NCBI GenBank assembly: GCA_048213135.1
Contig: PS015010.1
Location: 620,001 to 684,000, forward strand
Direction of reading: 5' to 3'
Length of the DNA stretch: 64,000 nt
Origin: Reclinomonas americana ATCC 50394
Lineage: Eukaryota
Below the pieces are notes generated by a model. The model saw nothing but the letters and a program-made list of their open reading frames with translations, searched no databases and had not been told where the DNA came from. The translations under genes and the position numbers were made by a program. Position 1 is the stretch's first letter. Every line of letters starts with the position of its first letter. This document shows, one piece after another, positions 15,912-32,438 of this stretch.

Positions 15912-16472
15912 CTATTGCTTTCCTTTCTGCCTGTTGATCATGTCCCTTATCCTTCCGGCACTTTCATAATCTTCTTTGGCCAGCACATTTTGTAACAGGC
16001 TTTCCAGTTCGCTGATGCTGTAATCGGCAAGAGAGCCTTTGATGAGATTGAGTTTCTTTAAAGTATCTGTAATCACGGCTTCTCCCATTACAGTAGCCGC
16101 TACATATAAAGGACAGGCAAACCGGATGGACATAGCCAGTGCGTCACTCGCCCGGGCATCAATTTTCTTCTCTTCCTTTTGAGCCGTTTCGATCACCAGC
16201 CAGGCGTGAAACATATTGTTCTCAATCATGTAAATGACCACTTCCTTCAAACGTCCGCCCATTTCTGTAATGGTGGTTTTAAAAATATCATGGGTGAGCG
16301 GCCTGGGCAGCTGCATCCGCTCCAGGTACACCGCTATGGCCTGGGCCTCCGTAGCACCGATGATAATGGCCATCCTTTTTTTTGTTTCAGGACTTTCCAG
16401 CACGGCGGCGTAGTTGCCGGGAGAGCTTTCGCTGCTGCTTAACGCTATTAAATGGACCTCAATTTTTTCCAT
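15912..16472 (-). CDS. Bifunctional nuclease (DUF151) family protein with UVR domain
   Basis: IIIGATEAQAIA, RPLTHD, IDARASDALA, EDYESAGRIRD. Confidence 0.88.
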   Translation of the reverse strand: MEKIEVHLIALSSSESSPGNYAAVLESPETKKRMAIIIGATEAQAIAVYLERMQLPRPLTHDIFKTTITEMGGRLKEVVIYMIENNMFHAWLVIETAQKEEKKIDARASDALAMSIRFACPLYVAATVMGEAVITDTLKKLNLIKGSLADYSISELESLLQNVLAKEDYESAGRIRDMINRQKGKQ

Positions 16473-16497
16473 ACCGGGATATGTTTATTGTATAAAC

Positions 16498-16698
16498 CTA
16501 CAGCAAAATAAAACGACACAGTTCATCCACATCATCAAACGGGGCTACTACCAGCTCATAACTGAATAATTTATACAGGCCATTGGCTTCCACCTCAATA
16601 TGATAGCCTTTGCCAACAGTTATGCTGTTATTGTTTGTGACAACGATCTCAATGTTGTAATCTTTTAAAGCGGCAATGAGTATTTCCAGTGCTGTCAT
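16498..16698 (-). CDS. Small hypothetical protein in the hydrogenase operon
   Basis: 66 aa, co-oriented, 3-bp gap from the upstream gene. Confidence 0.6.
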   Translation of the reverse strand: MTALEILIAALKDYNIEIVVTNNNSITVGKGYHIEVEANGLYKLFSYELVVAPFDDVDELCRFILL

Positions 16699-16701
16699 TT
16701 T

Positions 16702-17349
16702 CTAAACGGATAAGTTTTCCTTAATAATAAAAAAGCCATAAATGATGCAAAGCGCAGATGAGACCAGGATGAGCAGGCCCTGCACCAGGGTATGCTGTAA
16801 ATACTTTTTACTGAATGGCAAGCTGAACAATGCCGCTGCCAGCATCATCCCTCCTACAGAGCCTATACCAAATATCGCCAGGTACAGAATACTGCTGCCG
16901 GTGGAGTGTGTTTTACTCAACACGATCAGCATTAATGCCCCACTGCCCGCAAGGCCATGTACCAACCCTATTAAATAGGCCGGTAAATGCGAATGAACTT
17001 TTCCGCCATGACTGTGCAGGGAATGGTTATGCTGATGTATTGAAAGAGCAGACCTGCTCCTGTACCATTTCAGCAACCTGTAAACGCCAAGTGATAACAG
17101 CATCAGTCCAACGCCCGCTTCGAAATAGGAAAACCAGGTCTCCGCGATCCGGAACTTTATCACCAGGAAAATACAGCCGATGACCAGTATGGTAGAAGTG
17201 TGGCCTAATCCCCAAAAGATGCCATCTTTCATCGCTTTGTTCAGCCTGTTCCTGGTTGTCACCATATTGCTGACGGCCAGTAAATGATCGGTCTCAAAAG
17301 CATGTGTAAACCCGGCATAAAGGGTTAAAAAAATGGGAATGGTGATCAT
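16702..17349 (-). CDS. Nickel permease (NiCoT/UreH-like)
   Basis: HAFETDH motif, WGLGHT, His-rich loop, GLVHGLAGSG. Confidence 0.85.
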   Translation of the reverse strand: MITIPIFLTLYAGFTHAFETDHLLAVSNMVTTRNRLNKAMKDGIFWGLGHTSTILVIGCIFLVIKFRIAETWFSYFEAGVGLMLLSLGVYRLLKWYRSRSALSIHQHNHSLHSHGGKVHSHLPAYLIGLVHGLAGSGALMLIVLSKTHSTGSSILYLAIFGIGSVGGMMLAAALFSLPFSKKYLQHTLVQGLLILVSSALCIIYGFFIIKENLSV

Positions 17350-18425
17350 CTCTCTTTTTTATAAAATAAAATACGGTGATTGCCGGTGTCGGCTAAAATC
17401 AGAAAATCATTGTAAGTGTTGATGGCAAAAGGCCAGTACATCTCGTTCTTGATGTCCGACTTCAGGCTCAGGGATGTTTCGCCATGTGTTTCAAAATCAG
17501 GCTGTCCTATTTGGGCAACAGCCTCCTGGTTATTATAACCGGGTTTGCCATGAAAAACAATACGGCTGTTGCCGGTATCGGCGATGGCTATGCCTTCATC
17601 GGTAAAGCAGCAATCGTAAACCCAGTTTAGTGTGTTGGCATTGGGTTTTAACCGGTATTGATTTTGCCCGTTGGCAGAAAAATCATTTTGTCCGAAAATG
17701 ATATCCGCCTTTTGCTGTACGGCCTTTTGCCATTGGTGCCAGTACAGTACCCTGAAAAATTGCGTATCAGCGACTGCCATATTTCCGGCGCTGTTTACTT
17801 TTACCGAATAGGGCCATACCGCATTTTCATTGTTGTAATCCTTGTCTTCAAAACTATCCTGGCCAATGACGAGGGTGGCGGCGGCAAAGTTGTGTGACGG
17901 TATCGTGTCAAAATACAGGATACGGCGGTTGCCGGTGTCGGCGATCCATAGTTCATGACCATTGCTGTATACACCATAAGGCCAGTTCAAACTGTTGCTG
18001 CCGGGTGGTTTCCCAATGCCATGTACATTGGGCTGGTTACTGGTAAAATCGGGCTGCCCGATTACAATGTCTGCCGGCTGGAAATTCTGCACAGGCATTG
18101 TTTTCCAGATCAGCACCCTGTGGTTCCAGGCATCGGCAACGATAACCATTTCACCATTGGTCCATACCGCGGACGGGTATTGCAAAGATGAGGAGGAGAC
18201 GCCCATGCCGGCGTTGCGTTCCGTCGCAGTCATCTCTTTTTGTCCCAGGATGATATCAGGCTGTTGAAAGTCTGTATGCTGAAAGTTGTTCCAGATAAAG
18301 ACCCTGTTTTGCCCGGTATCGCTGACCACTAAAGTATCGTTGTGCAGGTACACTCCCCTGGGCGCCAGGAAGGGATTGTCCTGTTCCCCGGAAAAAGTAT
18401 TAAGCAAGGTATATGCTGACTTCAT
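17346..18425 (-). CDS. NHL-repeat protein associated with hydrogenase maturation
   Basis: Repeated (A/S)DTGNxR(V/I) and GQxDF motifs. Confidence 0.85.
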   Translation of the reverse strand: MKSAYTLLNTFSGEQDNPFLAPRGVYLHNDTLVVSDTGQNRVFIWNNFQHTDFQQPDIILGQKEMTATERNAGMGVSSSSLQYPSAVWTNGEMVIVADAWNHRVLIWKTMPVQNFQPADIVIGQPDFTSNQPNVHGIGKPPGSNSLNWPYGVYSNGHELWIADTGNRRILYFDTIPSHNFAAATLVIGQDSFEDKDYNNENAVWPYSVKVNSAGNMAVADTQFFRVLYWHQWQKAVQQKADIIFGQNDFSANGQNQYRLKPNANTLNWVYDCCFTDEGIAIADTGNSRIVFHGKPGYNNQEAVAQIGQPDFETHGETSLSLKSDIKNEMYWPFAINTYNDFLILADTGNHRILFYKKER

Positions 18426-18442
18426 CTTCTTTGATATATTCC

Positions 18443-19486
18443 TTAACAAATGCGGGGTAATTGTTCACCGGTTAACATATTGACAACTCTCTTTCCGCCA
18501 ATGGAGCTTTGCATGATCACCTGTCCTTTATGGGCAGCGACGATGCTGCCTATGACCGCAGCCTGAGAGCATCGCTCATACGTCTGCAATCGGCGGACCA
18601 CCTCACCGGCTATATCCTTTTGCACTGCCATGATAAACACCCCTTCATTGGCCACATACAAAGGATCGAGGCCCAGCATTTCGCAGGCGCCATTTACCTG
18701 TTCCGTAACCGGGATATGATTCTGCATGATCTCGATACCCAGGCTGGCGTCTTTGGCCACTTCATTCAGTACACTGGCGATGCCACCGCGGGTAGCGTCC
18801 CTCAGGAAATGAATATCATTCTTGAATGTGCTGATCATATCCTGCACGATGAAATTGAGGTTACAGGTATCGCTTTCAATGTCGGTCTCAAATTCCAGGC
18901 CCTGGCGTTTACTCATAACAGCAATACCATGATTGGCGATGGTATGGCTTACAATGATGGCATCGTTTTCCTGTATCTGGCGCAAGCCGATAGCCGCGTC
19001 GGGCAGCACAACACCGATGCCGCTGGTATTGATGAAAATTTTATCGCCTTTGCCTTTTTCCACTACTTTGGTATCGCCGGTTACAATCTGCACGCCTGCA
19101 TTATCCGCAGCCTGTTTTATATTATTCAGTATCTGCCAGAAGTCCGCCATCTCTAATCCTTCTTCAATGATAAATGCCAGGGATAAGTATTTGGCCATGG
19201 CGCCGCACATGGCCAGGTCGTTGACGGTACCATTGACGGCCAGTTCGCCAATGCTGCCGCCGGGGAAGAAAATGGGATGTATGACATAGCTGTCGGTGCT
19301 GAATGCCAGTTGGCCTTCCAAAGTAAATTGCGCTCCGTCATGCTTCTCATCCAGCCAGTCATTTTTCAGAACCTGGAACACGCCATTATTCAGCAGCTGG
19401 TGAGTAAGGATGCCACCGCTGCCATGACCTAAATTGATGGTATCAAAGTCAAACCTGGGTAGGGGGCAGGAGAGTTGCACTTTCAT
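18443..19486 (-). CDS. hypE: Hydrogenase maturation carbamoyl dehydratase HypE
   Basis: GHGSGG, NGTVNDLAM, GDTKVV, RDATRGG, ANEG, C-terminal PRIC. Confidence 0.95.
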   Translation of the reverse strand: MKVQLSCPLPRFDFDTINLGHGSGGILTHQLLNNGVFQVLKNDWLDEKHDGAQFTLEGQLAFSTDSYVIHPIFFPGGSIGELAVNGTVNDLAMCGAMAKYLSLAFIIEEGLEMADFWQILNNIKQAADNAGVQIVTGDTKVVEKGKGDKIFINTSGIGVVLPDAAIGLRQIQENDAIIVSHTIANHGIAVMSKRQGLEFETDIESDTCNLNFIVQDMISTFKNDIHFLRDATRGGIASVLNEVAKDASLGIEIMQNHIPVTEQVNGACEMLGLDPLYVANEGVFIMAVQKDIAGEVVRRLQTYERCSQAAVIGSIVAAHKGQVIMQSSIGGKRVVNMLTGEQLPRIC

Positions 19487-19491
19487 ATTTG

Positions 19492-20580
19492 CTAGTTGAT
19501 ATTGCTGAAATGATAATACGCGGCGCACGCCCCTTCACTGCTGACCATGGGTGCACCGACAGGATTTAAGGGTGTACATTTTTTTCCAAATTGCGGGCAC
19601 TGGCCCGGTTTTTTTATACCCCTTAATATTTCCCCGGCAATACATTTCTTGCTTTCTTCGGCCTTTGGAATGTAAATGCTGAATTTTTTATTGGCATCAA
19701 ACAGGGCATAATCGTCTGCTATTTCATACCCGCTCATGGGAATATCGCCAATGCCCCGCCATTCCCTGTTGCCGGTGGTAAACACAGACCGGATCACATC
19801 CTGCGCATCAGGATTGCCGTTACTGCGCACCACCCTGCTGTACTGGTTCTCCAGTTTGTATTCACCGTTCTCCAGTTGCTTTACCAGCATGGTAATTCCC
19901 TGCAGCAGGTCAACGGGTTCGAAGCCGGTAACGACAATGGGCAGTTGGTACTTTTCCACGATCGGGTAGTATTCATCCAAACCCATGATGGTGCAAACAT
20001 GCCCTGCTGCCAGGAAGCCCTGTACAATGTTGGTTTCGTCATTTACCAGCGCTTCTATGGCGGGAGGTACCAGCACATGACTGGTAAGCAGGCTGTAGTT
20101 GGTCAGTTTCTCCCGCCGGGCGTGCAATACGCTTAATGCGTTGGCCGGCGCCGTGGTTTCAAACCCGACAGCAAAAAACACCACTTGTTTACCGGGGTTT
20201 TCCTTTGCCAGCTTTACCGCTTCCAGGGGAGAATATAATATCCTTACATCGGCGCCGAGGGCTTTTGCTTCGAGCAGACTTTTTTTACTCCCGGGAACCC
20301 TCAGCATGTCACCATAACTGCAGAGGATTACATTTTTCTCTTCTGCCAGGTAAACGGCTTTGTCAATCAGGTGCAGCGGGGTAACACATACCGGGCAACC
20401 CGGGCCATGTACCATATTTATTTTTTCCGGCAGCAGGGAAAGAATGCCGTTTTTTACAAGACTGTGTGTTTGCCCTCCGCATACTTCCATTATTGTCCAC
20501 GGTCTGGTCGTGATTCTGTGTAATTCCTCAATATATTGTTCAACTACGGAAGCTTCCCGGTATTCTGTTAAGTATTTCAT
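19492..20580 (-). CDS. hypD: Hydrogenase maturation protein HypD
   Basis: MEVCGGQTH, GPGCPVC, GFETTAP, PMVSSEGACAAYY. Confidence 0.96.
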   Translation of the reverse strand: MKYLTEYREASVVEQYIEELHRITTRPWTIMEVCGGQTHSLVKNGILSLLPEKINMVHGPGCPVCVTPLHLIDKAVYLAEEKNVILCSYGDMLRVPGSKKSLLEAKALGADVRILYSPLEAVKLAKENPGKQVVFFAVGFETTAPANALSVLHARREKLTNYSLLTSHVLVPPAIEALVNDETNIVQGFLAAGHVCTIMGLDEYYPIVEKYQLPIVVTGFEPVDLLQGITMLVKQLENGEYKLENQYSRVVRSNGNPDAQDVIRSVFTTGNREWRGIGDIPMSGYEIADDYALFDANKKFSIYIPKAEESKKCIAGEILRGIKKPGQCPQFGKKCTPLNPVGAPMVSSEGACAAYYHFSNIN

Positions 20581-20581
20581 A

Positions 20582-21433
20582 TCATGTAGTTTTTTCAGTT
20601 ATGGTCAAATAATTATAGATGGAGGTAATGCTCAGTATGAAAAGACCGGCGATAAGTGAAAAAGCCACATTTAAATAGTGATGCGCCGATAAGGAAAGCC
20701 TGAGTAATACGGTAGCGAACGCGAAGCCTGAATACCGGAAAAGGTTATAGTACCGGGTGTTATACCTTAATGAGAACAGGAGGATGAACATGTCGGTATA
20801 GATAAGTATTGTAAAAAATGTATGAAAAGAACTGATGTAGGTAAGCTGCAGGAAACTGCTGACCAGGTCTTTCACGCCCAGCAGCACGAAAAGAATAAAG
20901 AGCACCAATGCCAGTATCTTTTTTACCAGGAGGAAATTTTCCTGTTCTTCTTTTGTTGACGTGATCTTGTGATGTTTTTGCGCCTTGTAGTAGAGGCCGG
21001 TAATGAAAAACAGCACCACGGCGCCGAATGCATCCGTCAGCACAGGTAAAAAAGTATATACGGCATCTGCTGTCCAGTCGATGTGGTAGTTGATCTTCCC
21101 GAATTCTTTAAAGGCATCCCGTAACAGCATCAGTGATATGATTTCAAATTGCCTGCCTACACTGTCTGCAACGCTTTGCGAAAAAACAAAGAGGAGCCCG
21201 ATGAGTTCGAATATCAGCAACAGGTTAAACGCCAGTTCAATACCGAAATAGGTAGTGGCTTCATGAAAAGAGATCCAATGCCAGTTTTGCAGCAGTACAA
21301 TCCCGATCCCGGCCAGCATGGTAAGCAATACGATGCTGCTTATCCAGCGGTAAGCCCTGAGCGATTCCCAGGTATTATGCAGGGCGTCAAATACGCGGGC
21401 AAGCTTTTGGGCGATATGTAAAGCGGCAGTCAT
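20582..21433 (-). CDS. Uncharacterised polytopic membrane protein between hypC and hypD
   Basis: About 7-8 hydrophobic segments; 1-4 bp spacing to its neighbours. Confidence 0.75.
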   Translation of the reverse strand: MTAALHIAQKLARVFDALHNTWESLRAYRWISSIVLLTMLAGIGIVLLQNWHWISFHEATTYFGIELAFNLLLIFELIGLLFVFSQSVADSVGRQFEIISLMLLRDAFKEFGKINYHIDWTADAVYTFLPVLTDAFGAVVLFFITGLYYKAQKHHKITSTKEEQENFLLVKKILALVLFILFVLLGVKDLVSSFLQLTYISSFHTFFTILIYTDMFILLFSLRYNTRYYNLFRYSGFAFATVLLRLSLSAHHYLNVAFSLIAGLFILSITSIYNYLTITEKTT

Positions 21434-21437
21434 TATA

Positions 21438-21704
21438 TTATTTGTCTACCTGTGTATGATCAATGAGTTCATCTATTTCGCCTATTTCTTTCAGGTATTC
21501 GAACGATTTGGTTGCTTCAGCCTCGTCTATCCGGCTGATCGCGACGCCTACGTGTACCAGCACATAATCGTTGATCTGTGCGTCAGGCAGCATTTCCAGC
21601 GATGCTTCCTTTATAATGCCGCCAAAGGAGACTTTCGCTATTCTTACCTTTCCATCATAAATGGTTTCAATGCTTTGGATTTTACCGGGAATTGCAAGAC
21701 ACAT
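21438..21704 (-). CDS. hypC: Hydrogenase chaperone HypC
   Basis: MCLAIPG start, DYVLVHVGVAI. Confidence 0.95.
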   Translation of the reverse strand: MCLAIPGKIQSIETIYDGKVRIAKVSFGGIIKEASLEMLPDAQINDYVLVHVGVAISRIDEAEATKSFEYLKEIGEIDELIDHTQVDK

Positions 21705-21705
21705 A

Positions 21706-24093
21706 TTATTGGTTATTGATTGTGAATGATGAATTATTATTGTCGATTCCGTTATCGCAGTATACCAATTGCCCGAAGGCGATATTTTCATCATTGGGTG
21801 ATAACCGCTGATGAAAGAACAGCCGGAATTTTTGCTGCAGGTGAATTTTTACCAGGTCAACCAGCACCGTATTCTGAAATACCCCGCCACTGAACGCGAT
21901 CTTGTTGATCGATTCCCTTTCGGCAATGGCGGCAATGCAGCTTACAATACTGCGGTGAAATTTAGCGGCGATGAAGGAGCGGTCTTTTCCCTTGTTGATG
22001 TCGGAGATCACACCGTTCACTAAAGCCAGGGTAGGCAAAGGTTTCAACAGGGAATGGCCCGCCAGGTAGGTTTCTTCGAATTGCCAGTTCACCCTTTCCA
22101 GGTAGCTAAGTGCAAGGTCTTCCAGTTTTATAGCTGCCTCCGCTTCATAACTTTGTTTATCGGTAATATCCAGCAGGCTCGCTACCGCGTCAAAGATCCT
22201 GCCCAGGGAAGAAGACTGCATGCCGGTATGTTTCTTCAGCATTTGGTTATACAACTGCCATTCGGTACCGGTAAATTTTTGCCGCAAGATATCGCCAGCC
22301 CCCGGAGAATCGTGGGCAATGGCCAGCGCGCTCAGCCGGGGTTCTCTTGCCATCTTATCACCGAAAAGCACCGGGAAGTAAGCGAAGTGTGAACAGCGCT
22401 CAATCATTTTATCCTGGTACCTGAAAAATTCACCTCCCCAGGTATTCCCGTCATCGCCCAGGCCTGTGCCATCCGCGATGAAGCAAAGCACAGGGGCTGT
22501 TTCGCCCACCAGGTCATTTTCTGCCAATACTGCGGCCAGGTGGGCTTTGTGGTGCTGCACCACTTGCTGTGGTATTTCACTTTGTTCGCAACAGGCTTTT
22601 CCAAACTGGCTTGTGAAATAGCCGGGATGTTTATCGCTGACAATACTTTTTACATCATGCGCCTGTAATGTGCCGGTAAGCTGTTGCCATGTATGCTGGT
22701 AATATTGTTGTGATTCAAGACCTATGGTGTTGCCCAGGTACTGGCTTATATAATATTGCCGGTGATGCTGTATCGCAATACTGCTTTTCAGCAGCGCTCC
22801 TGTTGCCATAATCGTTTGAGAGGAGACGGGATGGATATTTGTTAATGAAGGTGATAAACCTCTTGCCCTGCGTATGACAACAGCCTGCTGCAGCCTGCTT
22901 ATCCTGATCACGCTGTCATCCTGCGGTACCACGATCTTCCTGTTATGGCTTATGATGATATCCGCGACTGATGATAAGTGCGAGACCGCTTCTTCATCAT
23001 CAAAAATAATGGGCGAACCGCTTATGTTGCCGCTCGTACAGATCAATGGCTTCCCGAATTGTGTGCTGACCAGGTGAAGCAGTGGCGAATTGGGTAACAT
23101 CACGCCAACAGTTTGCAGGCCCGGGGCAATCGCATCAAAGGCGATTTGACCGGCAGCTGTTTTTTGGGCTTTCAGCAGCAGGATAGCGGCAGCATCATTC
23201 TGGAGGTATTCCTGCTCCGGTGTACTGCATATCCCAAGTGAATGAACGGCTTCCATATTGCCGCACAAAATGGCAAAGGGTTTGGCGGGCCGGTGTTTCC
23301 GGTCACGTAAATTTTGTATGGCTACGGCATTCGCGGCATCGCAAAGTAAAACATAACCGCCAACGCCTTTTAAGGCGACAATTTTACCTGATCTTAGATT
23401 TTCGTCAATGATGGCTGACACAGTTTTGTTGCCGGTAACCGCAGACCGGCTCCTGCTGTCTGTTGCCGTTAACTGAACGCCGCAATGCGTACAACTGTTG
23501 GTTTGGGAAAAATATCTCCTGTCTTGCAGGTTATGGTATTCTTCTGAACAGGCGGCGCACATATCAAATTCATGCATGGTGGTATTGCTCCTGTCGTAAG
23601 GTAATTGCTGCAGGATGGAATACCGGGGACCGCATTGCGTGCAGGTGATAAAAGGGTAAAGGTACCTGCGGTTATTTTTATCGTACATCTCCTGAAGACA
23701 TTGAGGACAGGGCGCATAGTCAGGCGTCAGGGGAATGCTCACCGCATCTGCTGAAGAGCTCTCCGTAATGGTAAAGTCAGTAAAAGTCCTGCCTGTTGTT
23801 TCATACATTGATGACGAGGCTATGATCGCTTTGGCAGGAGCCTTATTGAGCAATGCGGTGTAATAGGAGCGGGCTTTTTTTTCGGTAGTACAGATGTTGA
23901 TATGCAGCCCGTCGTTACCATTACTGACAACGCCGTTTATATGATATTGCTTCGCCAGCGTATATGCCAATGGCCTGAAACCTACGCCCTGTACTATACC
24001 GGTAAGATGTATGTGATAAGTATGGATAGGCTGATCATCCCGCACGGTATCTGCCAGCGTAAGCAACGGTTCGCTATGGTGCTGCGTATTCAA
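21706..24093 (-). CDS. hypF: Carbamoyltransferase HypF
   Basis: GIVQGVGFRP, two CxxC-x18-CxxC zinc fingers, QHHKAH, DGTGLG, SGGVFQN. Confidence 0.95.
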   Translation of the reverse strand: MNTQHHSEPLLTLADTVRDDQPIHTYHIHLTGIVQGVGFRPLAYTLAKQYHINGVVSNGNDGLHINICTTEKKARSYYTALLNKAPAKAIIASSSMYETTGRTFTDFTITESSSADAVSIPLTPDYAPCPQCLQEMYDKNNRRYLYPFITCTQCGPRYSILQQLPYDRSNTTMHEFDMCAACSEEYHNLQDRRYFSQTNSCTHCGVQLTATDSRSRSAVTGNKTVSAIIDENLRSGKIVALKGVGGYVLLCDAANAVAIQNLRDRKHRPAKPFAILCGNMEAVHSLGICSTPEQEYLQNDAAAILLLKAQKTAAGQIAFDAIAPGLQTVGVMLPNSPLLHLVSTQFGKPLICTSGNISGSPIIFDDEEAVSHLSSVADIIISHNRKIVVPQDDSVIRISRLQQAVVIRRARGLSPSLTNIHPVSSQTIMATGALLKSSIAIQHHRQYYISQYLGNTIGLESQQYYQHTWQQLTGTLQAHDVKSIVSDKHPGYFTSQFGKACCEQSEIPQQVVQHHKAHLAAVLAENDLVGETAPVLCFIADGTGLGDDGNTWGGEFFRYQDKMIERCSHFAYFPVLFGDKMAREPRLSALAIAHDSPGAGDILRQKFTGTEWQLYNQMLKKHTGMQSSSLGRIFDAVASLLDITDKQSYEAEAAIKLEDLALSYLERVNWQFEETYLAGHSLLKPLPTLALVNGVISDINKGKDRSFIAAKFHRSIVSCIAAIAERESINKIAFSGGVFQNTVLVDLVKIHLQQKFRLFFHQRLSPNDENIAFGQLVYCDNGIDNNNSSFTINNQ

Positions 24094-24848
24094 TTGGTGA
24101 TGGCTGTTGTATTGTTTTTCTTTTCAGCTGATTTCTGTTTAAGCCAGTCACACCATTCGTCAATGCCATGGCCGGAGAGGCTGCTGATGGCGATTACTTC
24201 CAGGCCGGGGTTAATATCCCGTGCATCCTGCGTTACAGCATCTACGCTGAATGGCACATAGGGCAGGAGGTCCGATTTGCTCACCAGCATCAGCTCGCTG
24301 GTTAAGAACATACGGGGATATTTTTTGGGCTTATCATCACCTTCCGTACTGGCAATTAAGGTAACGCGGTAGTCTTCTCCCAGGTCAAACGCGGCAGGGC
24401 AGACCAGGTTGCCAACATTCTCGATAAATAAAATATCAAGCCCGTCATAATTAAAATGGTCCAGTGCCTGCAATACCATCTGCGCTTCAATATGGCACAT
24501 GCCACCGGTAACAATTTGCAGGCAGTCTATACCCGCTTCCCTGATGCGTATGGCATCCCTTTCTGTTTCGGGATCACCAACCAGCACACCCATTCTCAGT
24601 TGTCCGTTCAAACGTTTCCCGGTTTCCTGCATCAGTGTTGTTTTGCCGCTGCCGGGAGAGGAGCAGATATTCAGCACCAGGATATTGTGGGGGGCGAGTT
24701 TATCCCGGATGGCTTTGGCCACATAATCGTTTGCCTTTAATAAATTAAGCGTTGTGTTTTCGCATTGCACACTTCCTGCCGGGGCCCTGTTGCTTTTTGG
24801 TTGGGACATACTATTTCTGGTTATAAATGATGAATCAGTCGTTTTCAA
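24090..24848 (-). CDS. hypB: Nickel-insertion GTPase HypB
   Basis: SSPGSGKTT, GGMCH, ENVGNLVCP, EGDDKP. Confidence 0.95.
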   Translation of the reverse strand: MKTTDSSFITRNSMSQPKSNRAPAGSVQCENTTLNLLKANDYVAKAIRDKLAPHNILVLNICSSPGSGKTTLMQETGKRLNGQLRMGVLVGDPETERDAIRIREAGIDCLQIVTGGMCHIEAQMVLQALDHFNYDGLDILFIENVGNLVCPAAFDLGEDYRVTLIASTEGDDKPKKYPRMFLTSELMLVSKSDLLPYVPFSVDAVTQDARDINPGLEVIAISSLSGHGIDEWCDWLKQKSAEKKNNTTAITN

Positions 24849-25182
24849 ATTCCACTTTTGTGATCAGCAATTCTTCACCCTGTATTACATTGCTGCAGGG
24901 GCTGCCACACCGGGAACAAATAAATTTATATTGCTGCACTTCACTTGTTGTATGGCATTGGGCGCATAATACCTTTATGGGCAACACCTCCACATTCAAT
25001 ATGGCTTTGGCATACCCGGGTTCGTCCTGCAATACGGCATCAAAGGCATTTTGCATAAGAATGGGCTGTACATTACTGAGCAATCCCACTGTCAGGTAAA
25101 TATTCCTTACATCACCGAGGCGGCCGGGGAATTCGGCTTCCAGGGTGCTGAAGATGTTTCGTACCAGTGATATCTCGTGCAT
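24835..25182 (-). CDS. hypA: Nickel metallochaperone HypA
   Basis: MHE N-terminus, CAQC...CSRC, QGEEL. Confidence 0.93.
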   Translation of the reverse strand: MHEISLVRNIFSTLEAEFPGRLGDVRNIYLTVGLLSNVQPILMQNAFDAVLQDEPGYAKAILNVEVLPIKVLCAQCHTTSEVQQYKFICSRCGSPCSNVIQGEELLITKVEFEND

Positions 25183-25184
25183 AA

Positions 25185-26663
25185 CTATTCCGTGATGATG
25201 GTTTGTCGTTTTAACTGGTGCAGTTTTTCAATATCTTCTCTCGTGTGCTGAAGGATGTCCGCGTCGGTGGTCAGTGATAGAATTTCACCGGCTGTTGCTA
25301 CCATATCATTATACCGCTCTTCATCAAATTCATCCTTATTCCCGGCAAACCAGCTTGCTTCGAGGTAATTGCAAAGTGTCAATACTCTTTCTATAGGATA
25401 ATCGGCAGCGGTGCGTATATCCAGGGCTTCCCTGTACCAGGCTAAGGCCTTATCGTAGTTATCACTGTGCAGGGCTTGCGGGTATTGGGTATACGCATTG
25501 CCCATACTATGGCAGATCATGGCAAACTCATACGGGTAGTCGACTTTGTTATAAAAATTCAACGCTTCGTTAAAAGAAGAAACGGAAACCGCGGCCCACA
25601 CGCTTTTCTTTTTGATATCATCCGGTATCTGGGCATATACAATGCCCAACTGGTGCTGTATGTCAGCGAACACATCGGGGACCGTATCCCTGGTGAAAAC
25701 GGCCAGTGCATGCTGGTAGCTTTGCATGGCCTGCCTGTAAAATTGCGGGTTGCCGTTTTTAGCCCAGGTCTGCAATAAATTCGCTTTGCCCAGGTGCGCC
25801 TGTGCCGCCAGTTCCGGCAGGTCTGCTTCTTCAAATATCTTAATGGCCCTGTTGCTATAGCCCAGCGCCTCACTGAAACTATCGCTGATGGTCGCTATAT
25901 AAGCAGCGTCGTTGAGCAGTAATGCCGCTTCTGTAAAACGGTTACGGGCTTCATACCAGGAAAGGCATTCCCACAACATTGATTTCAGTTTTTCAACCAG
26001 GGTTTTGTCGTACGGAACGGTTATTTTCTTCATCCATACAGCGCATAACGTGGTCTTTAACGCGATACCTGCTTCTTCGGGCAGGCCTGCAAATAAATTT
26101 TGCAGGATAATGTTTTCGGCTGCATCGTACCGTCCGCAATCCAGGTTAAATAATGCATAATGGTTGGCCGTAAATGCTTTGTACAGGTCGCCCGGGGCAT
26201 GGGCCAATGCGGTGTCATACAGGTCATTGACATTTTGGGCATATGTTGTTTGCTGCTGGTGCCCGTAATGCCAGGCTACCGCTTTGTTGTGTATATTGAT
26301 ATAGCCTGTTTCCGCAAGTTCAAGATCATCTATAGCAACACCATGCTGTAAGCGGTTGAGCAGATCAGCCGGCTTCCATAGGCGGGTATTTTTTTGCAAA
26401 AGAGGGTAGGCCGCCTCATAATTGCTCAGCCGGGCATAGATCACTCCCAATGTAATGTCCTTGCTGAATGGGAATATAGGGAATAAGACCGGCGGCTGGC
26501 GATTCTTCCAGTCCGGAAGCACCAGTACCTCATCGGATACCAGCATATCGGCGTCCGGCATTGTCTCGTCAACTAAGATGGCCACTTCATTCAGCCTGGG
26601 CTGAAGGCTGATGAGTTCCTGCAGCTCTCGCTGATGTTCAGTTGTAACAGAAATTAAAATCAT
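25185..26663 (-). CDS. Tetratricopeptide-repeat protein (hydrogenase-associated)
   Basis: Helical TPR-like repeats (AQAHLGKA, ADIQHQLG, AMICHSMGNAY, ALAWYREAL). Confidence 0.8.
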   Translation of the reverse strand: MILISVTTEHQRELQELISLQPRLNEVAILVDETMPDADMLVSDEVLVLPDWKNRQPPVLFPIFPFSKDITLGVIYARLSNYEAAYPLLQKNTRLWKPADLLNRLQHGVAIDDLELAETGYINIHNKAVAWHYGHQQQTTYAQNVNDLYDTALAHAPGDLYKAFTANHYALFNLDCGRYDAAENIILQNLFAGLPEEAGIALKTTLCAVWMKKITVPYDKTLVEKLKSMLWECLSWYEARNRFTEAALLLNDAAYIATISDSFSEALGYSNRAIKIFEEADLPELAAQAHLGKANLLQTWAKNGNPQFYRQAMQSYQHALAVFTRDTVPDVFADIQHQLGIVYAQIPDDIKKKSVWAAVSVSSFNEALNFYNKVDYPYEFAMICHSMGNAYTQYPQALHSDNYDKALAWYREALDIRTAADYPIERVLTLCNYLEASWFAGNKDEFDEERYNDMVATAGEILSLTTDADILQHTREDIEKLHQLKRQTIITE

Positions 26664-26945
26664 GGTCTTGTATCGTTAGTGATCCACGGGAATCTTTTTG
26701 TGTTGTCCTGGTAAAAAGAAGGCGAATGTGTCGGCCTTTGATTTTGTCGGGTAGCTATCCGGCATCAAACGGCAGATGAATTGCATCGGCTGTCTTATCC
26801 AGGCGAATACCAGTAATATCCGCCACCTTTCTTTTTGCGTAAATACATTGGCTATAACGGCCGTATCCCTGAGCCATTTATCATTTTGCAGGAAATGCAG
26901 ATCGCTGCTGTTGCCCGAAAAGTCGGTAAAGACGATGTTCAGCAT
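26638..26945 (-). CDS. Unknown small protein X2, paralogue of 28575-28934; apparent -1 frameshift near the 3' end
   Basis: DKWLRDTAVIANV...WRILLVFA...PMQFI aligns with X1; adding one base to the A5 run at 26713-26717 gives TRTTQKDSRGSLTIQDHDFNFCYN*, matching X1 RRLAAKDQRGTLQV. Confidence 0.7.
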
Positions 26946-26946
26946 A

Positions 26947-27744
26947 TCACTTCAATGTTACGGTTAGTATTTTCATTCGTTCATCCGCGATAAAAGGCAG
27001 GTACCTGTCACCGTTATCCAGTTCGTTATCCAGTATCAGTTCCTGTATGGATATGCTCCTGTCGCCATCACCATTCTTGTATTTCAGCATACTCATATTG
27101 GTTTTATGCAAACTTTTGAACAGGTCGTCATATTGTGAAACGATCAGCATACTGCCTTTCTGCGGGTAATAAACCCAGTTGACCTGGGCCGCGTTCTCAA
27201 ACAAACAGCCGGCGATGTGCACAGGTACGATCAAGTGCCCGTTTATGACGGCCATACCGGTTTTTTGCTGTTCGGCCGGGATCTCTTTCATGATCAGCCC
27301 GGCTACTTTATCTCCCGCGGTCCTGACTTCTTCGCTCAGCCGGATCTCCAGCCGGGTATCATCCACCGCTACCAGGTATACGGTAATGTCTTCGGGATAA
27401 TCGCTGCCCATGATCTTTTTAGCGTAACTCAGGGCCTGGTCCCATTTCAGGCTGTGCAGGAAAACCATAGGATCATCCTGCGGTGCCGACATCACTTCGC
27501 TGGCGGGTACTTTGTATAAGGTACCGGGTTTTTCACCGGTATTAAGCACCGCATCTACCAGTATTATTTTTTGATGCCCCTTTAGCTGGAAAAGCAGTTC
27601 AAAGGCCCCGGTGCCCATGTCGATAACCGTAATATGCTCATTGTTGTGCAGTTGTTTCTTTAATTCATCGATTACGTAAATGCCTACGGCATCGTCGCTG
27701 CGGCAGGGGTTGCCAAAACCCATTATGGCTGTCTTTACTGTCAT
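26947..27744 (-). CDS. Hydrogenase maturation endopeptidase (HyaD/HupW type) with ~100 aa C-terminal extension
   Basis: GFGNPCRSDDAVG, DMGT, LVDAV, HSLKWD; extra domain with LKYKNGDGDRSI. Confidence 0.88.
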   Translation of the reverse strand: MTVKTAIMGFGNPCRSDDAVGIYVIDELKKQLHNNEHITVIDMGTGAFELLFQLKGHQKIILVDAVLNTGEKPGTLYKVPASEVMSAPQDDPMVFLHSLKWDQALSYAKKIMGSDYPEDITVYLVAVDDTRLEIRLSEEVRTAGDKVAGLIMKEIPAEQQKTGMAVINGHLIVPVHIAGCLFENAAQVNWVYYPQKGSMLIVSQYDDLFKSLHKTNMSMLKYKNGDGDRSISIQELILDNELDNGDRYLPFIADERMKILTVTLK

Positions 27745-27791
27745 GTGATTGTCAATGTTAGGAAATTGGAATTAGAAAGCCTTCCATATAT

Positions 27792-27809
27792 TTAGAAAAT
27801 ATTTTCTAA
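27792..27809. promoter_or_regulatory. Perfect 18-bp palindrome, putative TetR operator
   Basis: TTAGAAAAT-ATTTTCTAA in the 96-bp gap between the divergent protease and TetR1 genes. Confidence 0.75.
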
Positions 27810-27840
27810 CTTCAGAATCTGCCAGCCAATTAAATACGGT

Positions 27841-28458
27841 ATGAAACCCACGAAACAGCATATATTGGATAAAGCGCTTAGATTATTTAACCAGAACGGT
27901 TTTGTAAACGTACGCCTCCAGCATATAGCTGACGCTGCCTTCGTAAGCGTTGGTCACCTGGCCTATCATTTTAAGAATAAGGAGGCGATTATCGATGCAC
28001 TGTACAACAGCCTGCAGAAGGAGTTACAGCAAATATTGAACAGGTATATATCAGCTCCTTTGTTTGCGGATATCAACGGTCTTTGGATGGCCCATTATGA
28101 CCTGCAGGAGAAATTCAGTTTTTTTTACCTGGATACACTTGAGATTGTCCGCAACCACGCTGCCATAGGGAAGAAATATGAGCAGCAGGTCTCATGGCAG
28201 GCATCGCAATATCAAATGATATTGCAGTTCAGTATTGCCCGGGGATCGGTGATTCCCCTTACCGGTTCGCAGATGCAGCATATAACCTGGCTTATTCATA
28301 ATACCATCGTTACTTATAAATATCAATGCAGCATCCAGGGTACATCCTGCCATATGCAACACTACTCCGACCTGCTTTGGGGAATAATTACGCCTTATTT
28401 TACAGATATGGGGCGGGATGAGTATAACCATCTGGAGCTGCTTCCTGAAAAGGGGTAA
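27841..28458 (+). CDS. TetR/AcrR-family regulator (TetR1)
   Basis: ILDKALRLFNQNGFVNVRLQHIADAAFVSVGHLAYHFKNKE. Confidence 0.92.
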   Translation: MKPTKQHILDKALRLFNQNGFVNVRLQHIADAAFVSVGHLAYHFKNKEAIIDALYNSLQKELQQILNRYISAPLFADINGLWMAHYDLQEKFSFFYLDTLEIVRNHAAIGKKYEQQVSWQASQYQMILQFSIARGSVIPLTGSQMQHITWLIHNTIVTYKYQCSIQGTSCHMQHYSDLLWGIITPYFTDMGRDEYNHLELLPEKG

Positions 28459-28574
28459 GAGCAGGTTGCGTGTGCCTGGCCGGGTTTAAAGTACAGGTTC
28501 TGACTGCCGTATTGCGGGAGGAAAGGAATGATATCTTTATTGAATTAAATATTATTTTTAGGAAAAATTACCTG

Positions 28575-28934
28575 ATGTCTTTGAGTTGCAAAATAGATGA
28601 TGTACTGTATGGACAGATGCTTGACTATATGCAAACCTTAATGCAGGCCGATGTGCAGGGCGATGTAACCGATATCAGTTTTTACGATGATGATTTCTGG
28701 CTGCAGGATACCGTGGTGATCGAGAATGTGGAATACAGAAACGGTGAGTGGAATATCTTTTTGGTATTTGCCCATCATTTATTGCCTTTGAAATTCATTA
28801 AAAGAAAGATTAAAAACTTTGCCTGCCCTAAAAAGGCGGCGTTAACGGCTCATTATATGCGCAGGCTGGCCGCAAAGGACCAGCGCGGCACTTTGCAGGT
28901 CAACATGGGATTATTAACCATCAACTTCAGCTGA
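28575..28934 (+). CDS. Unknown small protein X1 (hydrogenase-locus family)
   Basis: ATG at 28575; 1-bp gap to TetR2; paralogous to 26638-26945. Confidence 0.75.
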   Translation: MSLSCKIDDVLYGQMLDYMQTLMQADVQGDVTDISFYDDDFWLQDTVVIENVEYRNGEWNIFLVFAHHLLPLKFIKRKIKNFACPKKAALTAHYMRRLAAKDQRGTLQVNMGLLTINFS

Positions 28935-28935
28935 A

Positions 28936-29547
28936 ATGCAGAGTACGAAACTTAAGATAGTGCAGGTGAGCGAGCAGCTTTTTTTTGAGCTGGGCATCGC
29001 CAACGTACGGCTTCAGCAAATTGCGGATGCCGCGGATATCAGCGTGGGTAACCTGGCCTATCACTATAATAATAAGGAGGCGATTGTTTTTGCCGTGTAT
29101 GAAAATCTGTTTACACAGCTTTCCAATATCTTATCACAGTTCATTGTACACCAGGAACTGGATGGTTTCGACAAACAGTTTAGCGCCCTCTACCATTTTT
29201 ACAATGAAAATAACTTTACCTACAATAACCAGTGGGAGATCGGGAGAAACTATCCTGAGATACAGAACGAATGGTTAAGTACTATGAACAAAATAATGCT
29301 GCAATTCAAAAAGCGGCTGGAGTTCAATGTAAAAAGCGGTTACCTGAAACCGGAGCTTTACAAAGGCGCACATGATATACTGGCGCAAAACCTTTCTTTG
29401 TTATCGCATTCTATCCTGCCCCAGCTGCTGCTGCGGAAAAAAGTGGTGAAGGAAAGTGAATATAAAAAACTGCTGTGGTCATTGCTGATCCCCGTTTTTA
29501 CTGAAAAAGGGAAAACTTTTTTCGACAGCCAGGTCTCGCAGTATTAG
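28936..29547 (+). CDS. TetR/AcrR-family regulator (TetR2)
   Basis: LFFELGIANVRLQQIADAADISVGNLAYHYNNKEAI. Confidence 0.92.
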   Translation: MQSTKLKIVQVSEQLFFELGIANVRLQQIADAADISVGNLAYHYNNKEAIVFAVYENLFTQLSNILSQFIVHQELDGFDKQFSALYHFYNENNFTYNNQWEIGRNYPEIQNEWLSTMNKIMLQFKKRLEFNVKSGYLKPELYKGAHDILAQNLSLLSHSILPQLLLRKKVVKESEYKKLLWSLLIPVFTEKGKTFFDSQVSQY

Positions 29548-29771
29548 ATGTTGGATTCTATGCTGTCCTTCTCCGTGGGCGCTGCCGGACAGCAGTATCT
29601 CCCCTGGAATATGCCGTCATGCTGACTGTGTTCAGAAATTAGTATGAGATTACTTACCCCAAAAAACGGGGTACCTCCTCTATGAATAATTGTTTATTTA
29701 TGCAAGGACCAGTATTTTTTTTGGCCGGAAGTGCTTGCTTTCCTGCCATGGGGCGGGCAATGGAAACTATT

Positions 29772-29808
29772 TTAGAAAATATTTTCTATTTTAGAAATAA
29801 TTTTCTAA
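29772..29808. promoter_or_regulatory. Two tandem copies of the putative TetR operator upstream of the small subunit gene
   Basis: TTAGAAAATATTTTCTAT (29772-29789) and TTAGAAATAATTTTCTAA (29791-29808). Confidence 0.75.
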
Positions 29809-29850
29809 TTTGGTCTGGTATTTTTTATTCAAACAAAAAAACGATTGCTT

Positions 29851-30813
29851 ATGGCTAACGTACTATGGCTTCAGGGTGGTGCCTGCAGCGGTAACACAAT
29901 GTCCTTTCTGAATGCGGAGGAACCAACGGTGGTAGAGCTGATTGTGGATTTTGGCGTGAATATCCTCTGGCATCCTTCCATTGGCCTGGAAATAGGTCAC
30001 CAGGTAACCGACCTGCTCAATGACATTATCGCGGGAAAAGTTCAGATGGACATTTTTGTGTATGAAGGCTCCATCATTGAAGGCCCTAACGGCACCGGTA
30101 CCATGAACTACTTTTGCGACCGGCCCATGAAAGACTGGGTAAGGGAGCTTTCTAAGGTTGCCGGTTATGTTGTAGCCATTGGCGACTGCGCCACATATGG
30201 CGGCATACCTGCAGTAGCGCCCAATCCAAGCGAAAGCACCGGGATGCAGTTCCTGAAACGGCAGAAAGGAGGCTTCCTGGGAGCCAATTACGTAAGCAAA
30301 GGCGGTCTGCCTGTAATCAATATTCCGGGTTGCCCGGCTCACCCCGACTGGATAACGCAAATACTTGTGGCCATCGCCACGGGCAGGATAAAAGATGTGC
30401 TGATTGATGAATTCCATCGCCCCAAAACTTTCTTCACCGATTTCGTTCAAACAGGTTGTCCCAACGTAACCAATTTCGCCCAAAAAGTAAATGGCGGCTT
30501 TGGAAAAAGAGGCAATGGCTGTTTGTTTTATGAGGTGGGCTGCCGCGGTCCAATGACCAGGGCCAGTTGCAACAGGATACTCTGGAACCGGACCAGCAGC
30601 AAAACAAGGGCGAATCATCCCTGCCTGGGATGTACGGAGCCCGGCTTCCCGCATAATGACCTGGCAAAAGGCAGTGTGTTCAAAACAATGAAATACCTGG
30701 GCGTAATACCGAAAGAAGTGCCTGCCGGCCAATCGGGCCTTGGCTATTTTATCAAGGCGGGTATTGAAAAGGTGTGGCCGGCCAATACCGCGATCCAGGA
30801 AGGAAGTAAATAA
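29851..30813 (+). CDS. hucS: Group 2a [NiFe]-hydrogenase small subunit (HucS/cyanobacterial HupS type)
   Basis: MANVLWLQGGACSGNTMSFLNAEEP (Asn at the second Cys position), GDCA, PGCP, QTGCP, GCRGP, HPCLGC; no Tat leader. Confidence 0.92.
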   Translation: MANVLWLQGGACSGNTMSFLNAEEPTVVELIVDFGVNILWHPSIGLEIGHQVTDLLNDIIAGKVQMDIFVYEGSIIEGPNGTGTMNYFCDRPMKDWVRELSKVAGYVVAIGDCATYGGIPAVAPNPSESTGMQFLKRQKGGFLGANYVSKGGLPVINIPGCPAHPDWITQILVAIATGRIKDVLIDEFHRPKTFFTDFVQTGCPNVTNFAQKVNGGFGKRGNGCLFYEVGCRGPMTRASCNRILWNRTSSKTRANHPCLGCTEPGFPHNDLAKGSVFKTMKYLGVIPKEVPAGQSGLGYFIKAGIEKVWPANTAIQEGSK

Positions 30814-30839: not shown

Positions 30840-32438
30840 ATGTCAACAGTAAAACAGTTAAATATATCACCCGTTGGTCGTGTAGAAGGCGACCTCGATG
30901 TAAAAGTGTACCTCGAAAATGGCGTAGTGACCAGGGCGCATACGCAAGCCGCCATGTTCAGGGGATTTGAAAGGATTATGCAGGGCAAGGATCCGCAAAG
31001 CGGTCTTATCGTTACACCCCGTATCTGTGGTATTTGTGGTGGTTCTCACCTGTACTGCGCCTCCAGTGCACTGGATACTGCCATGAAGACGCAATTGCCG
31101 CCCAACGCGTTATTATTAAGAGCACTGGGACAGGCTACCGAAACGATACAAAGTATCCCGCGCTGGTTTTATGCCATTTTCGCTACGGATATGGCCAATA
31201 AAAAATTCGCCAACAAAAAATTATACGATGAGGTGGTAAAGCGGTTTGCTGCTTACGTAGGTACATCATTTCAAAGCGGCGTAACGGCAAGTGGCCGCCC
31301 GGTGGAAGTTTATGCATTATTTGGCGGGCAGTGGCCCCACAGCAGTTATATGGTGCCCGGCGGAGTAATGTGTGCACCTACGCTGAAGGATATTACCAGG
31401 GCGCATGCCATCATGAATCAATTCAGGAACGACTGGCTGGAGACCACCTGGCTTGGTTGCTCTATTGAAAAATACCGGCAGGTACAAACCTGGGACGACC
31501 TGATGGCATGGGTGGATGAGAATGAAAGCCAGCGGAACAGCGATCTGGGCTTGTTTATAAGGGCTTCCCTTGAATTTGGGCTGGATAAATTCGGACAGGG
31601 GTGCGGTAACTATGTGGCATATGGCACCTACCTGCACAAGGATATGTACAATCATCCTACTGTTGAAGGAAGAAACGATGCCCTGATCAGCCCGGCAGGT
31701 TTTTATAACAGCCATACTAAGGAGTACAGGGATTTTGATCACCTCCAGATCAAAGAGCATGTGACCCATAGCTGGTACCAGGATCACAAAGCGGCACATC
31801 CGTGGGATGAACCCATTCCCACACCGGTGGCTTCACAAAACCTGGCGGATACCGATTTTAACAACAAGTACAGCTGGTCAAAAGCTCCGCGTTATATGGA
31901 CCATGCCGCGGAAGCCGGCCCGCTGAGCCGTTGCCTCATGTATGCCAAGCCCAATAACTTACCACACCAGATTAAAGATACGCTCATCAAGGATGCTTTC
32001 GATAAAATGGGACCAAGCGTGTTCCTGCGTACACTGGCACGTGTGCATGAAGCTCCCATGCTGTACGAAAAAATCGATGAATGGCTGCGCCAGATCGACC
32101 TGGACGGAGAGTTCTATATTAAGCCCGAAGAAAGGGATGGCAAAGGCTTTGGCGCCACAGAAGCTGCCAGGGGCGCACTGGCGCATTGGATAGAGATCGA
32201 AAATGGGGTGATTAAAAATTACCAGGTAATGGCGCCCACTACCTGGAATGTAGGTCCCAATGATGATGAGGGAAGAAGCGGCCCCATTGAGGCTGCCCTT
32301 GAAGGGATCGAAATTGAAGATGCCAACGACCCTGTGGAAGTGGGCATGGTGGCCCGCAGTTTTGATAGTTGTTTAGTTTGTACTGTACATGCGCATGACG
32401 CGAAAACCGGTAAGCAATTGGCAAAATTCAAATTGTGA
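30840..32438 (+). CDS. hucL: Group 2a [NiFe]-hydrogenase large subunit
   Basis: GRVEGDLD, L1 PRICGICGGSH, EAARGALAHW, L2 SFDSCLVCTVH plus a cleavable 15-aa tail. Confidence 0.93.
   Translation: MSTVKQLNISPVGRVEGDLDVKVYLENGVVTRAHTQAAMFRGFERIMQGKDPQSGLIVTPRICGICGGSHLYCASSALDTAMKTQLPPNALLLRALGQATETIQSIPRWFYAIFATDMANKKFANKKLYDEVVKRFAAYVGTSFQSGVTASGRPVEVYALFGGQWPHSSYMVPGGVMCAPTLKDITRAHAIMNQFRNDWLETTWLGCSIEKYRQVQTWDDLMAWVDENESQRNSDLGLFIRASLEFGLDKFGQGCGNYVAYGTYLHKDMYNHPTVEGRNDALISPAGFYNSHTKEYRDFDHLQIKEHVTHSWYQDHKAAHPWDEPIPTPVASQNLADTDFNNKYSWSKAPRYMDHAAEAGPLSRCLMYAKPNNLPHQIKDTLIKDAFDKMGPSVFLRTLARVHEAPMLYEKIDEWLRQIDLDGEFYIKPEERDGKGFGATEAARGALAHWIEIENGVIKNYQVMAPTTWNVGPNDDEGRSGPIEAALEGIEIEDANDPVEVGMVARSFDSCLVCTVHAHDAKTGKQLAKFKL

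Follow-up and report, generated by a model that had tools for sequence, protein, structure and literature searches.

The 64-kb stretch of DNA analysed here (hereafter the window; Reclinomonas americana ATCC 50394 assembly GCA_048213135.1, contig PS015010.1, positions 620,001 to 684,000) carries a [NiFe] hydrogenase locus of the group 2a (Huc) type, in which genes for two TetR-family regulators, TetR1 and TetR2, flank the gene of a small uncharacterised protein, X1. These genes probably belong to a locus-specific, TetR-controlled circuit of the Bacteroidota clade of this hydrogenase, one that includes a partnership between X1 and TetR2. In the circuit that we propose, TetR1 and TetR2 would each bind an 18-bp palindrome, TTAGAAA-N4-TTTCTAA, most likely as homodimers, and, by analogy with the TetR family, they would be repressors released by an effector. 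One copy of this predicted operator (O1) is at the promoter region shared by TetR1 and the maturation protease gene hycI, and two (O2 and O3) precede the small-subunit gene hucS. Because of these positions, a single operator type would cover hucSL, the maturation operon of ~12 kb, and, as autoregulation, the genes of the regulators. X1 would be co-transcribed with TetR2, probably with translational coupling, and act as its protein partner or effector, while TetR1 would act without an X-type partner and probably sense a different signal. X2, an X1 paralogue encoded in the maturation operon, would work with the maturation genes. The anatomy of the locus, its conservation, the co-occurrence of its components, and the genome-wide specificity of the operator are observed; from them we infer that the TetRs bind DNA and repress, that X1 contacts TetR2, and what kind of signals are sensed.

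The module TetR1-X1-TetR2 (27841-29547) lies between hucSL and the divergent maturation operon, which starts at 27744 on the minus strand, as the initial annotation had described (Table 1). Only 1 nt separates the stop codon of X1 from the start codon of TetR2. Both regulators have a TetR_N domain (PF00440, cut-off 24), with 47.2 bits for TetR1 and 33.0 bits for TetR2, and the C-terminal domain of TetR1 scores above the cut-off of PF13972 (33.8 bits, cut-off 25). The two proteins are 32% identical over 197 aa (E 1e-28), mostly in the N-terminal helix-turn-helix region of the first 60 residues, in agreement with the earlier description of similar DNA-binding regions and diverged C-terminal domains. 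Their closest solved sequence relatives are 3RH2 (a hypothetical TetR-like regulator), TtgR, and MtrR, and all NCBIfam equivalog models score far under their cut-offs. The hydrogenase itself is predicted to be a cytosolic group 2a (Huc-type) enzyme. The best solved relative of HucL is the Huc of Mycobacterium smegmatis (7UTD/7UUS, E ~1e-198, residues 6-517), the next solved hydrogenases being at E 1e-64 or weaker. Residues 4-5 of HucS align at positions 40-52 of the periplasmic small-subunit NCBIfam profiles, so that the leader region is missing; a cytosolic location is proposed because of this lack of an export leader. Pfam and NCBIfam scans of the open reading frames (ORFs) tested between 15912 and 33960 revealed no sensor hydrogenase, histidine kinase, or response regulator.

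The palindrome occurs three times in the window, always at the two promoter regions (27792, 29772, and 29791). Allowing up to 3 mismatches adds no further site in the 64 kb, and three matches were not reached in any of 100 shuffles. O1 is 32 bp from the start of TetR1 and 48 bp from that of hycI; O3 begins 19 bp after the start of O2 and has both of its mismatches in the central spacer. The same palindrome had been reported earlier at both promoter regions, which holds, except that hucS is preceded by two tandem copies and not by one. Near-identical strains vary at four positions of the hycI/TetR1 intergenic region (27770, 27773, 27800, and 27833), none of which hits a half-site: position 27800 falls in the free N4 spacer of O1.

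We scanned one genome per species with X1 as bait and retrieved 80 related loci, for a total of 81 sources and 1.09 Mb. Gene order is nearly constant among the 80 loci (TetR1-X1-TetR2-hucS-hucL-hycI-Y-(X2)-TPR-hypA-hypB-hypF, where Y is a second conserved protein next to the protease). The initial annotation had suggested such a synteny comparison and had named a lack of conservation beside hydrogenases as the outcome that would speak against it; the module is clearly conserved beside group 2a hydrogenases across Bacteroidota. In the 81 sources, the half-sites of the operator are essentially invariant and the central four bases are free. We found 160 sites at up to 1 mismatch, compared with 0-2 in 20 block shuffles. 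Most are upstream of hucS (100 sites in 66 loci), and the others precede hypB (15), hypA (12), X1 (11), TetR1 (7), hycI (3), TetR2 (3), hypC (2), or TPR (1), with one inside a hucS copy and five without an assigned position. When up to 2 mismatches are allowed, one or more sites are found in the 300 bp upstream of hucS in 68 of the 69 hucS-bearing loci. In locus L077, an operator precedes the operon hypE-NHL-NicO-like-BFN, which corresponds to the tail of the window's maturation operon in the same gene order. Exact sites number 0-3 per genome and are nearly all in the hydrogenase locus: two of two in G002, G003, G005, and G072, three of three in G376, and one of two in G004, which has one extra exact site outside that locus. 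In other genomes, they are all on the contig of hucL (2/2 in G993, G1016, and G885, 1/1 in G824, and 3/3 in G1028).

A second set of genomes was obtained with HucL as bait. It contains 11 HucL-positive genomes, four from an even sample of 401 Bacteroidota genomes and seven from 401 genomes of one order. In the even sample, HucL is found at 76% identity or more in 4 of the 401 genomes, and the X profile matches the same four and none of the 397 others. All nine genomes that encode this TetR type have the operator in their hydrogenase locus, and neither of the two without such a TetR does. Likewise, X1 is present in 8/8 genomes with TetR2 and in 0/3 without it. Eight of the 11 genomes have TetR2 with X1 and operators (G885 is fragmented). 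The three others differ in what they have kept: G824 has one TetR1-type gene, X2, and an exact operator before hypB, without X1 or TetR2; G360 has X2, Y, TPR, and hyp genes, without this TetR type, X1, or an operator on the hydrogenase contig; and G961 lacks this TetR type and any X and has no exact operator genome-wide, in a locus that looks complete (hucSL-hycI-Y-TPR-hyp). Two genomes show the module apart from its presumed targets. In G675, it is surrounded by unrelated genes near the centre of a 392-kb contig, and a different contig carries hucSL, preceded by three operators; in G677, ~45 kb separate the module from hucSL. This layout predicts that the module acts in trans.

Binding of the same palindrome by both TetRs, most simply as homodimers, is well supported as a prediction, because at least one of the paralogues always accompanies the operator and because they share a recognition helix, SVGNLAYH, which is at least 90% conserved in both (58 TetR1 and 80 TetR2 sequences). 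The initial annotation had proposed that the two regulators read one operator, possibly as a heterodimer. The first part is plausible, since either type alone co-occurs with the operator. An obligate TetR1/TetR2 heterodimer on each palindrome would be in line with near-identical recognition helices, with the adjacency of the genes, and with the presence of both in 60 of the 80 loci. We nevertheless consider it improbable, since TetR1 is absent from 18 loci with sufficient upstream sequence (2 are undecidable), and these 18 of the 78 evaluable loci keep the operator with TetR2; conversely, G824 keeps it with a TetR1-type gene and without TetR2. Moreover, a symmetric palindrome suits homodimers, and tandem sites tend to accompany both genes: two or more sites precede hucS in 35 of the 52 loci with both TetRs and in 0 of the 15 without TetR1, all 15 of which keep exactly one. 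As either TetR type alone retains the operator, an obligate heterodimer is unnecessary.

Could the palindrome be bound by a factor other than a TetR, such as X1, the MraZ-like Y, or an unlinked global regulator? We regard this as very improbable. The structural model of Y matches that of the DNA-binding MraZ (Z 8.2) and X1 is strongly basic in its C-terminal half, but Y is present in the operator-less G360 and G961, G824 has kept an exact operator without X1, and the operator is found only where this TetR type is encoded (9/9 versus 0/2). The few sites per genome, nearly always in one locus, point to a dedicated local factor, and those before TetR1 and X1 fit the autoregulation that is typical of the TetR family. 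Binding by the two TetRs is thus the reading that we retain.

X is a narrow family with no convincing fold match. X1 and X2 are paralogues, as initially claimed (41% identity over 59 aa, E 2e-13). A search of 5.8 billion clustered proteins gave 107 homologues of X1. Each of them is annotated as 'hypothetical', and those with an organism name belong to Chitinophagaceae, Saprospiraceae, Cyclobacteriaceae, Ekhidna, and Phaeodactylibacter, together with one partial record labelled Bacillus pumilus. A profile of X1 and X2 gave 116 matches among 1.84 billion representatives, with sizes of 42-205 aa and none of 210 aa or more. All matches to X or Y with an organism name are from Bacteroidota, except for the partial Bacillus pumilus record of X. 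Profile searches in Pfam, NCBIfam, and PDB identified no relative of X. The AlphaFold2 model of X1 (predicted local distance difference test [pLDDT] 84) begins with helices, which are followed by a meander of three strands and, at the C-terminus, by a long helix; the ESM Atlas model of a homologue (P0021) is of poor quality and gave no usable matches. X1 combines an acidic N-terminal half, with a net charge of -11, and a basic C-terminal half, with a net charge of +10 and a calculated isoelectric point of 11.2. The motif KDQRGT (K101-T106) is invariant in X1 and has a counterpart, KD-x-RGTL, in X2.

The association of X1 with TetR2 is very strict. A TetR gene is directly 3' of X1 in 80 of the 81 sources; in the remaining one, the contig stops 146 bp past X1. 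Where module and hydrogenase are unlinked (G675 and G677), X1 stays with the TetRs and not with the hydrogenase, and it was lost together with TetR2 in G824. The most economical reading of this gene coupling is that X1 would be a partner protein of TetR2. Mirror-tree rate correlations (0.77 for X1-TetR2, 0.75 for X1-TPR) do not discriminate between partners, probably because X1, TetR2, and TPR are all fast-evolving. The prediction of a complex of two TetR2 with X1 weighs neither way (score 0.00, with the alignments unused and the partner poorly folded).

X2 has a different distribution. It is found in 25 of the 81 sources, where its gene in the maturation operon is flanked by Y and TPR, and is absent from the other 56. 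It keeps the company of hycI-Y-TPR, often overlapping the start of TPR, and persists in G360 and G824, which have neither X1 nor TetR2. The regulatory role that had been suggested for X2 is not borne out by this pattern of segregation with hycI, Y, and TPR, nor by its absence from most loci. The pattern also raises a non-regulatory explanation for the whole family, in which X1 and X2 would be accessories of hydrogenase assembly or maturation, X1 would merely be located in the regulator operon, and the TetRs would sense small molecules only. Such an explanation, which we think rather unlikely, accounts for the restriction of the X family to genomes that encode the group 2a enzyme (4/4 versus 0/397), for the place of X2 in the maturation operon and its retention in the two genomes mentioned, and for the KD-x-RGTL motif common to X1 and X2. 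It is at odds with the complete-looking locus of G961, which has no X, with the lack of X2 in most sources, and with the fact that X1 is never apart from TetR2, whether the module is unlinked or lost. Returning to X1 as a partner of TetR2, we tentatively raise a more specific possibility: X1 might be an effector through which TetR2 is informed of the state of the hydrogenase or of its maturation machinery. It would share a hydrogenase-side partner with X2, e.g., the TPR protein, and free X1 would switch TetR2 between operator-bound and released states, resulting in feedback from enzyme assembly on hucSL and hyp, to which TetR1 would add a small-molecule input.

Several points weigh against the proposed circuit or parts of it. 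The presence of X1 in the 80 loci is by construction, because X1 was the bait, and most of the 11 genomes of the unbiased set are metagenome-assembled genomes. The two operator-less genomes among these, G360 and G961, are single, possibly divergent lineages, for which the loss of an unlinked regulator together with the module may be an alternative explanation. The C-terminal domain of TetR2 is just below the PF13972 cut-off (24.0 bits for a cut-off of 25). As for the operator, locus L069 has TetR1 and no site within 300 bp of hucS, the sole exact site of G896 is on another contig, its hydrogenase locus having 1-mismatch sites only, and G001 has only 1-mismatch sites in the hydrogenase locus. 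The link between TetR1 and tandem sites comes down to 4-6 independent contrasts on the HucL tree, of which 3-4 have the same direction and none the opposite one; these pairs are too few and the sign test is not significant (p 0.125-0.5). The fold of X1 is uninformative on its function: Foldseek comparison of the model with PDB returned nothing at E <=0.001, and the best hits of VIA-align (PH-domain halves, MmoD, and AP2) reach a Z of 5.5, which is within the noise of the tool. Finally, X is dispensable for a complete-looking locus, given that G961 has no X and most loci no X2, an observation that is neutral on a regulatory role.

Table 1. Coordinates of the genes and predicted operators of the hydrogenase locus in the window.
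Feature	Coordinates	Strand	Description
Maturation operon remainder	15912..25182	-	hypA, hypB, hypF, hypC, membrane protein, hypD, hypE, NHL-repeat, DsbD_2/NicO-like, BFN-UVR (Pfam)
TPR-repeat protein	25185..26663	-	492 aa; Pfam TPR; synteny-conserved accessory gene
X2	26638..26945	-	X1 paralogue, ORF 2 of the maturation operon; frameshifted in the record
HycI-Y fusion	26947..27744	-	265 aa; gene 1 of the divergent maturation operon; Pfam HycI
Operator O1 (predicted)	27792..27809		TTAGAAAATATTTTCTAA, perfect palindrome; 96-bp divergent promoter region
TetR1	27841..28458	+	205 aa; TetR-family regulator, accessory paralogue
X1	28575..28934	+	119 aa; uncharacterised family
TetR2	28936..29547	+	203 aa; TetR-family regulator, core paralogue
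Operator O2 (predicted)	29772..29789		1 mismatch; end 56 bp upstream of the hucS ORF
Operator O3 (predicted)	29791..29808		2 mismatches; end 37 bp upstream of hucS
hucS	29845..30813	+	[NiFe] hydrogenase small subunit; Pfam Oxidored_q6, NiFe_hyd_SSU_C
hucL	30840..32438	+	Group 2a (Huc-type) [NiFe] large subunit; Pfam NiFeSe_Hases

The first two genes of the maturation operon differ from their initial annotation. X2 is indeed the second gene, but its annotated ORF (89 aa, 26676-26945) is cut short by a frameshift near 26720, and the conserved C-terminus (…TRTTQKDSRGSL…) runs on in another frame to 26638. In three of four near-identical assemblies, X2 is intact thanks to one additional base behind 26720; the fourth has no cover there. 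The restored protein has ~102 aa and the 3' end of its gene overlaps the TPR start codon. Because these three assemblies carry an intact frame, we regard the break as an error or a private mutation of the record. The first gene, described as a 265-aa maturation protease, does encode HycI (residues 1 to ~160), here fused to Y (residues ~160-265; the C-terminal 106 residues are encoded by 26947-27267). In every other locus with hycI (L002-L080), Y is a separate ORF of 100-126 aa just after the protease. The near-identical assemblies have no indel across the HycI-Y junction region, and the fusion therefore seems real in the species.

Y is modelled with an MraZ-like fold made of two tandem swapped-hairpin repeats (MraZ/AbrB-SpoVT superfamily). 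Its model (pLDDT 95.4) matches MraZ (1n0e_A) with a Z of 8.2 and a root-mean-square deviation of 2.6 A over 90 of 106 residues, the next row having a Z of 4.5. Foldseek also pairs it with the MraZ of M. genitalium, with a probability of 0.99 and a template modelling score of 0.64 but an E of 0.04. None of 30 Y sequences has a Pfam match to MraZ or SpoVT-AbrB. Y has 56 homologues, all 'hypothetical', and those with a name are from Bacteroidota. A relationship between X and Y was considered and rejected (hhalign probability 0.4%).

Other features of these loci were recorded along the way. Between hypC and hypD, the maturation operon of the window encodes a multi-pass membrane protein of 283 aa (20582-21433, minus strand) with no Pfam or NCBIfam match; L065 and L075 have homologues of it next to TetR1 but in the opposite orientation. 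The operon closes with a DsbD_2/NicO-like protein, a possible nickel importer, and a protein with a BFN domain and a UVR motif (15912-17349, minus strand). L077 has this pair as well (8962-10140), after hypE-NHL in an operon that an operator precedes. L065, from a record titled Rickettsiales bacterium, contains a full module of the Bacteroidota type, with hucS 80% and hucL 81% identical to those of the window; because its genes resemble those of marine Bacteroidota, this label is probably a binning or labelling problem. In L036, a second, orphan hucS-like gene (9266-10180) lies between TetR2 and an operator-preceded hucSL, and orphan hucS genes are also found in ~19 other loci of Saprospiraceae/Lewinellaceae (L038, L039, L044, L045, L048, L052-L054, L056, L058-L060, L062, L063, L066, L067, L069, L070, and L073). 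These genes are 63-74% identical and have both small-subunit Pfam domains. Lying between TetR2 and the operator, the orphan hucS is therefore on the regulator side of the operator, and its product could be a redox or iron-sulphur sensing component.

The classical local repressors of the TetR family (TetR/tetO, QacR, AcrR, TtgR, and MtrR) act at a palindromic operator over the promoters of their neighbour and of their own gene. The system described here resembles them in its TetR_N domain and in the predicted operator at the promoters of neighbouring targets and of the regulators. It differs in that the target is a [NiFe] hydrogenase regulon and not an efflux or catabolic gene, and in that two paralogues share one operator, one of them always paired with the small X protein. 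Protein partners have been described in this family: a passage of PMC7590123 pairs the TetR-family activator DhaS of Lactococcus lactis with the co-activator DhaQ, and PhaD of Pseudomonas putida with PhaF. As in DhaS-DhaQ, X1 is the paralogue of a protein associated with the regulated pathway, namely X2 (41%, in the maturation operon). Unlike in DhaS-DhaQ, the proposed contact between X1 and TetR2 comes from gene coupling alone (adjacency in 80/81 sources, co-presence or co-loss in 11/11 genomes). DhaQ is a paralogue of a kinase subunit, and AmtR-GlnK is another case of a TetR regulator with a protein partner.

Known hydrogenase regulation involves H2 sensing by HupUV/HoxBC-HoxJ-HoxA, NtcA/LexA in cyanobacteria, and DosR in mycobacteria. 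The predicted circuit would be like these systems in controlling structural and maturation genes of an uptake hydrogenase, and unlike them in that the encoded regulators are of the TetR family. The group 2a clusters of other phyla (M. smegmatis Huc, cyanobacterial HupSL, and Parageobacillus) share hucS, hucL, the protease, TPR, NHL, and hyp genes with that of the window, whereas X has only its 116 matches in 1.84 billion representatives, the named ones from Bacteroidota but for one. A table of the Huc-type operon of Parageobacillus in PMC12976888 contains genes for a protease, a hypothetical protein, TPR, NifU, and NHL. Islam et al. 2020 (PMC7784904) describe, in the sections concerned, a Bacteroidota-associated radiation of HucL and state that H2 oxidation is unreported in this clade; the linked genes listed there are hucS, hucE, NHL proteins, and maturation factors, and no regulator is named among them. 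A search of the full-text literature gave no paper tying TetR regulators to any [NiFe] hydrogenase operon in Bacteroidota, with the limits that 'TetR' queries mostly matched 'tetratricopeptide' and that the supplementary cluster drawings of Islam et al. 2020 (Fig. S4, Table S2) might show such genes. A conserved TetR-hydrogenase control circuit is thus apparently undescribed so far.

The loci found here include those of cultured bacteria: Chitinophaga costaii, Spirosoma spp., Emticicia aquatilis, Arsenicibacter rosenii, and Fibrivirga algicola. Among them, Chitinophaga costaii A37T2 has X1-TetR2 only, and Emticicia aquatilis and Arsenicibacter rosenii have both TetRs; Spirosoma fluviale is another culturable carrier. 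With a group 2a hydrogenase, aerobic bacteria can draw on H2 at trace levels. The proposed circuit offers testable handles on when soil, freshwater, and marine Bacteroidota oxidise H2, in the form of its two regulators, its invariant operator of 18 bp, and its defined regulon, and X2 and the MraZ-like Y are two further uncharacterised conserved proteins in the locus. The strict pairing of X1 with TetR2 may represent a kind of control by protein effectors that is new to the TetR family. If X1 does report the state of the hydrogenase or its maturation to TetR2, it would represent a new family of TetR co-regulators, and the circuit would provide the first regulatory logic for atmospheric-type hydrogenases outside Actinobacteria and Cyanobacteria.

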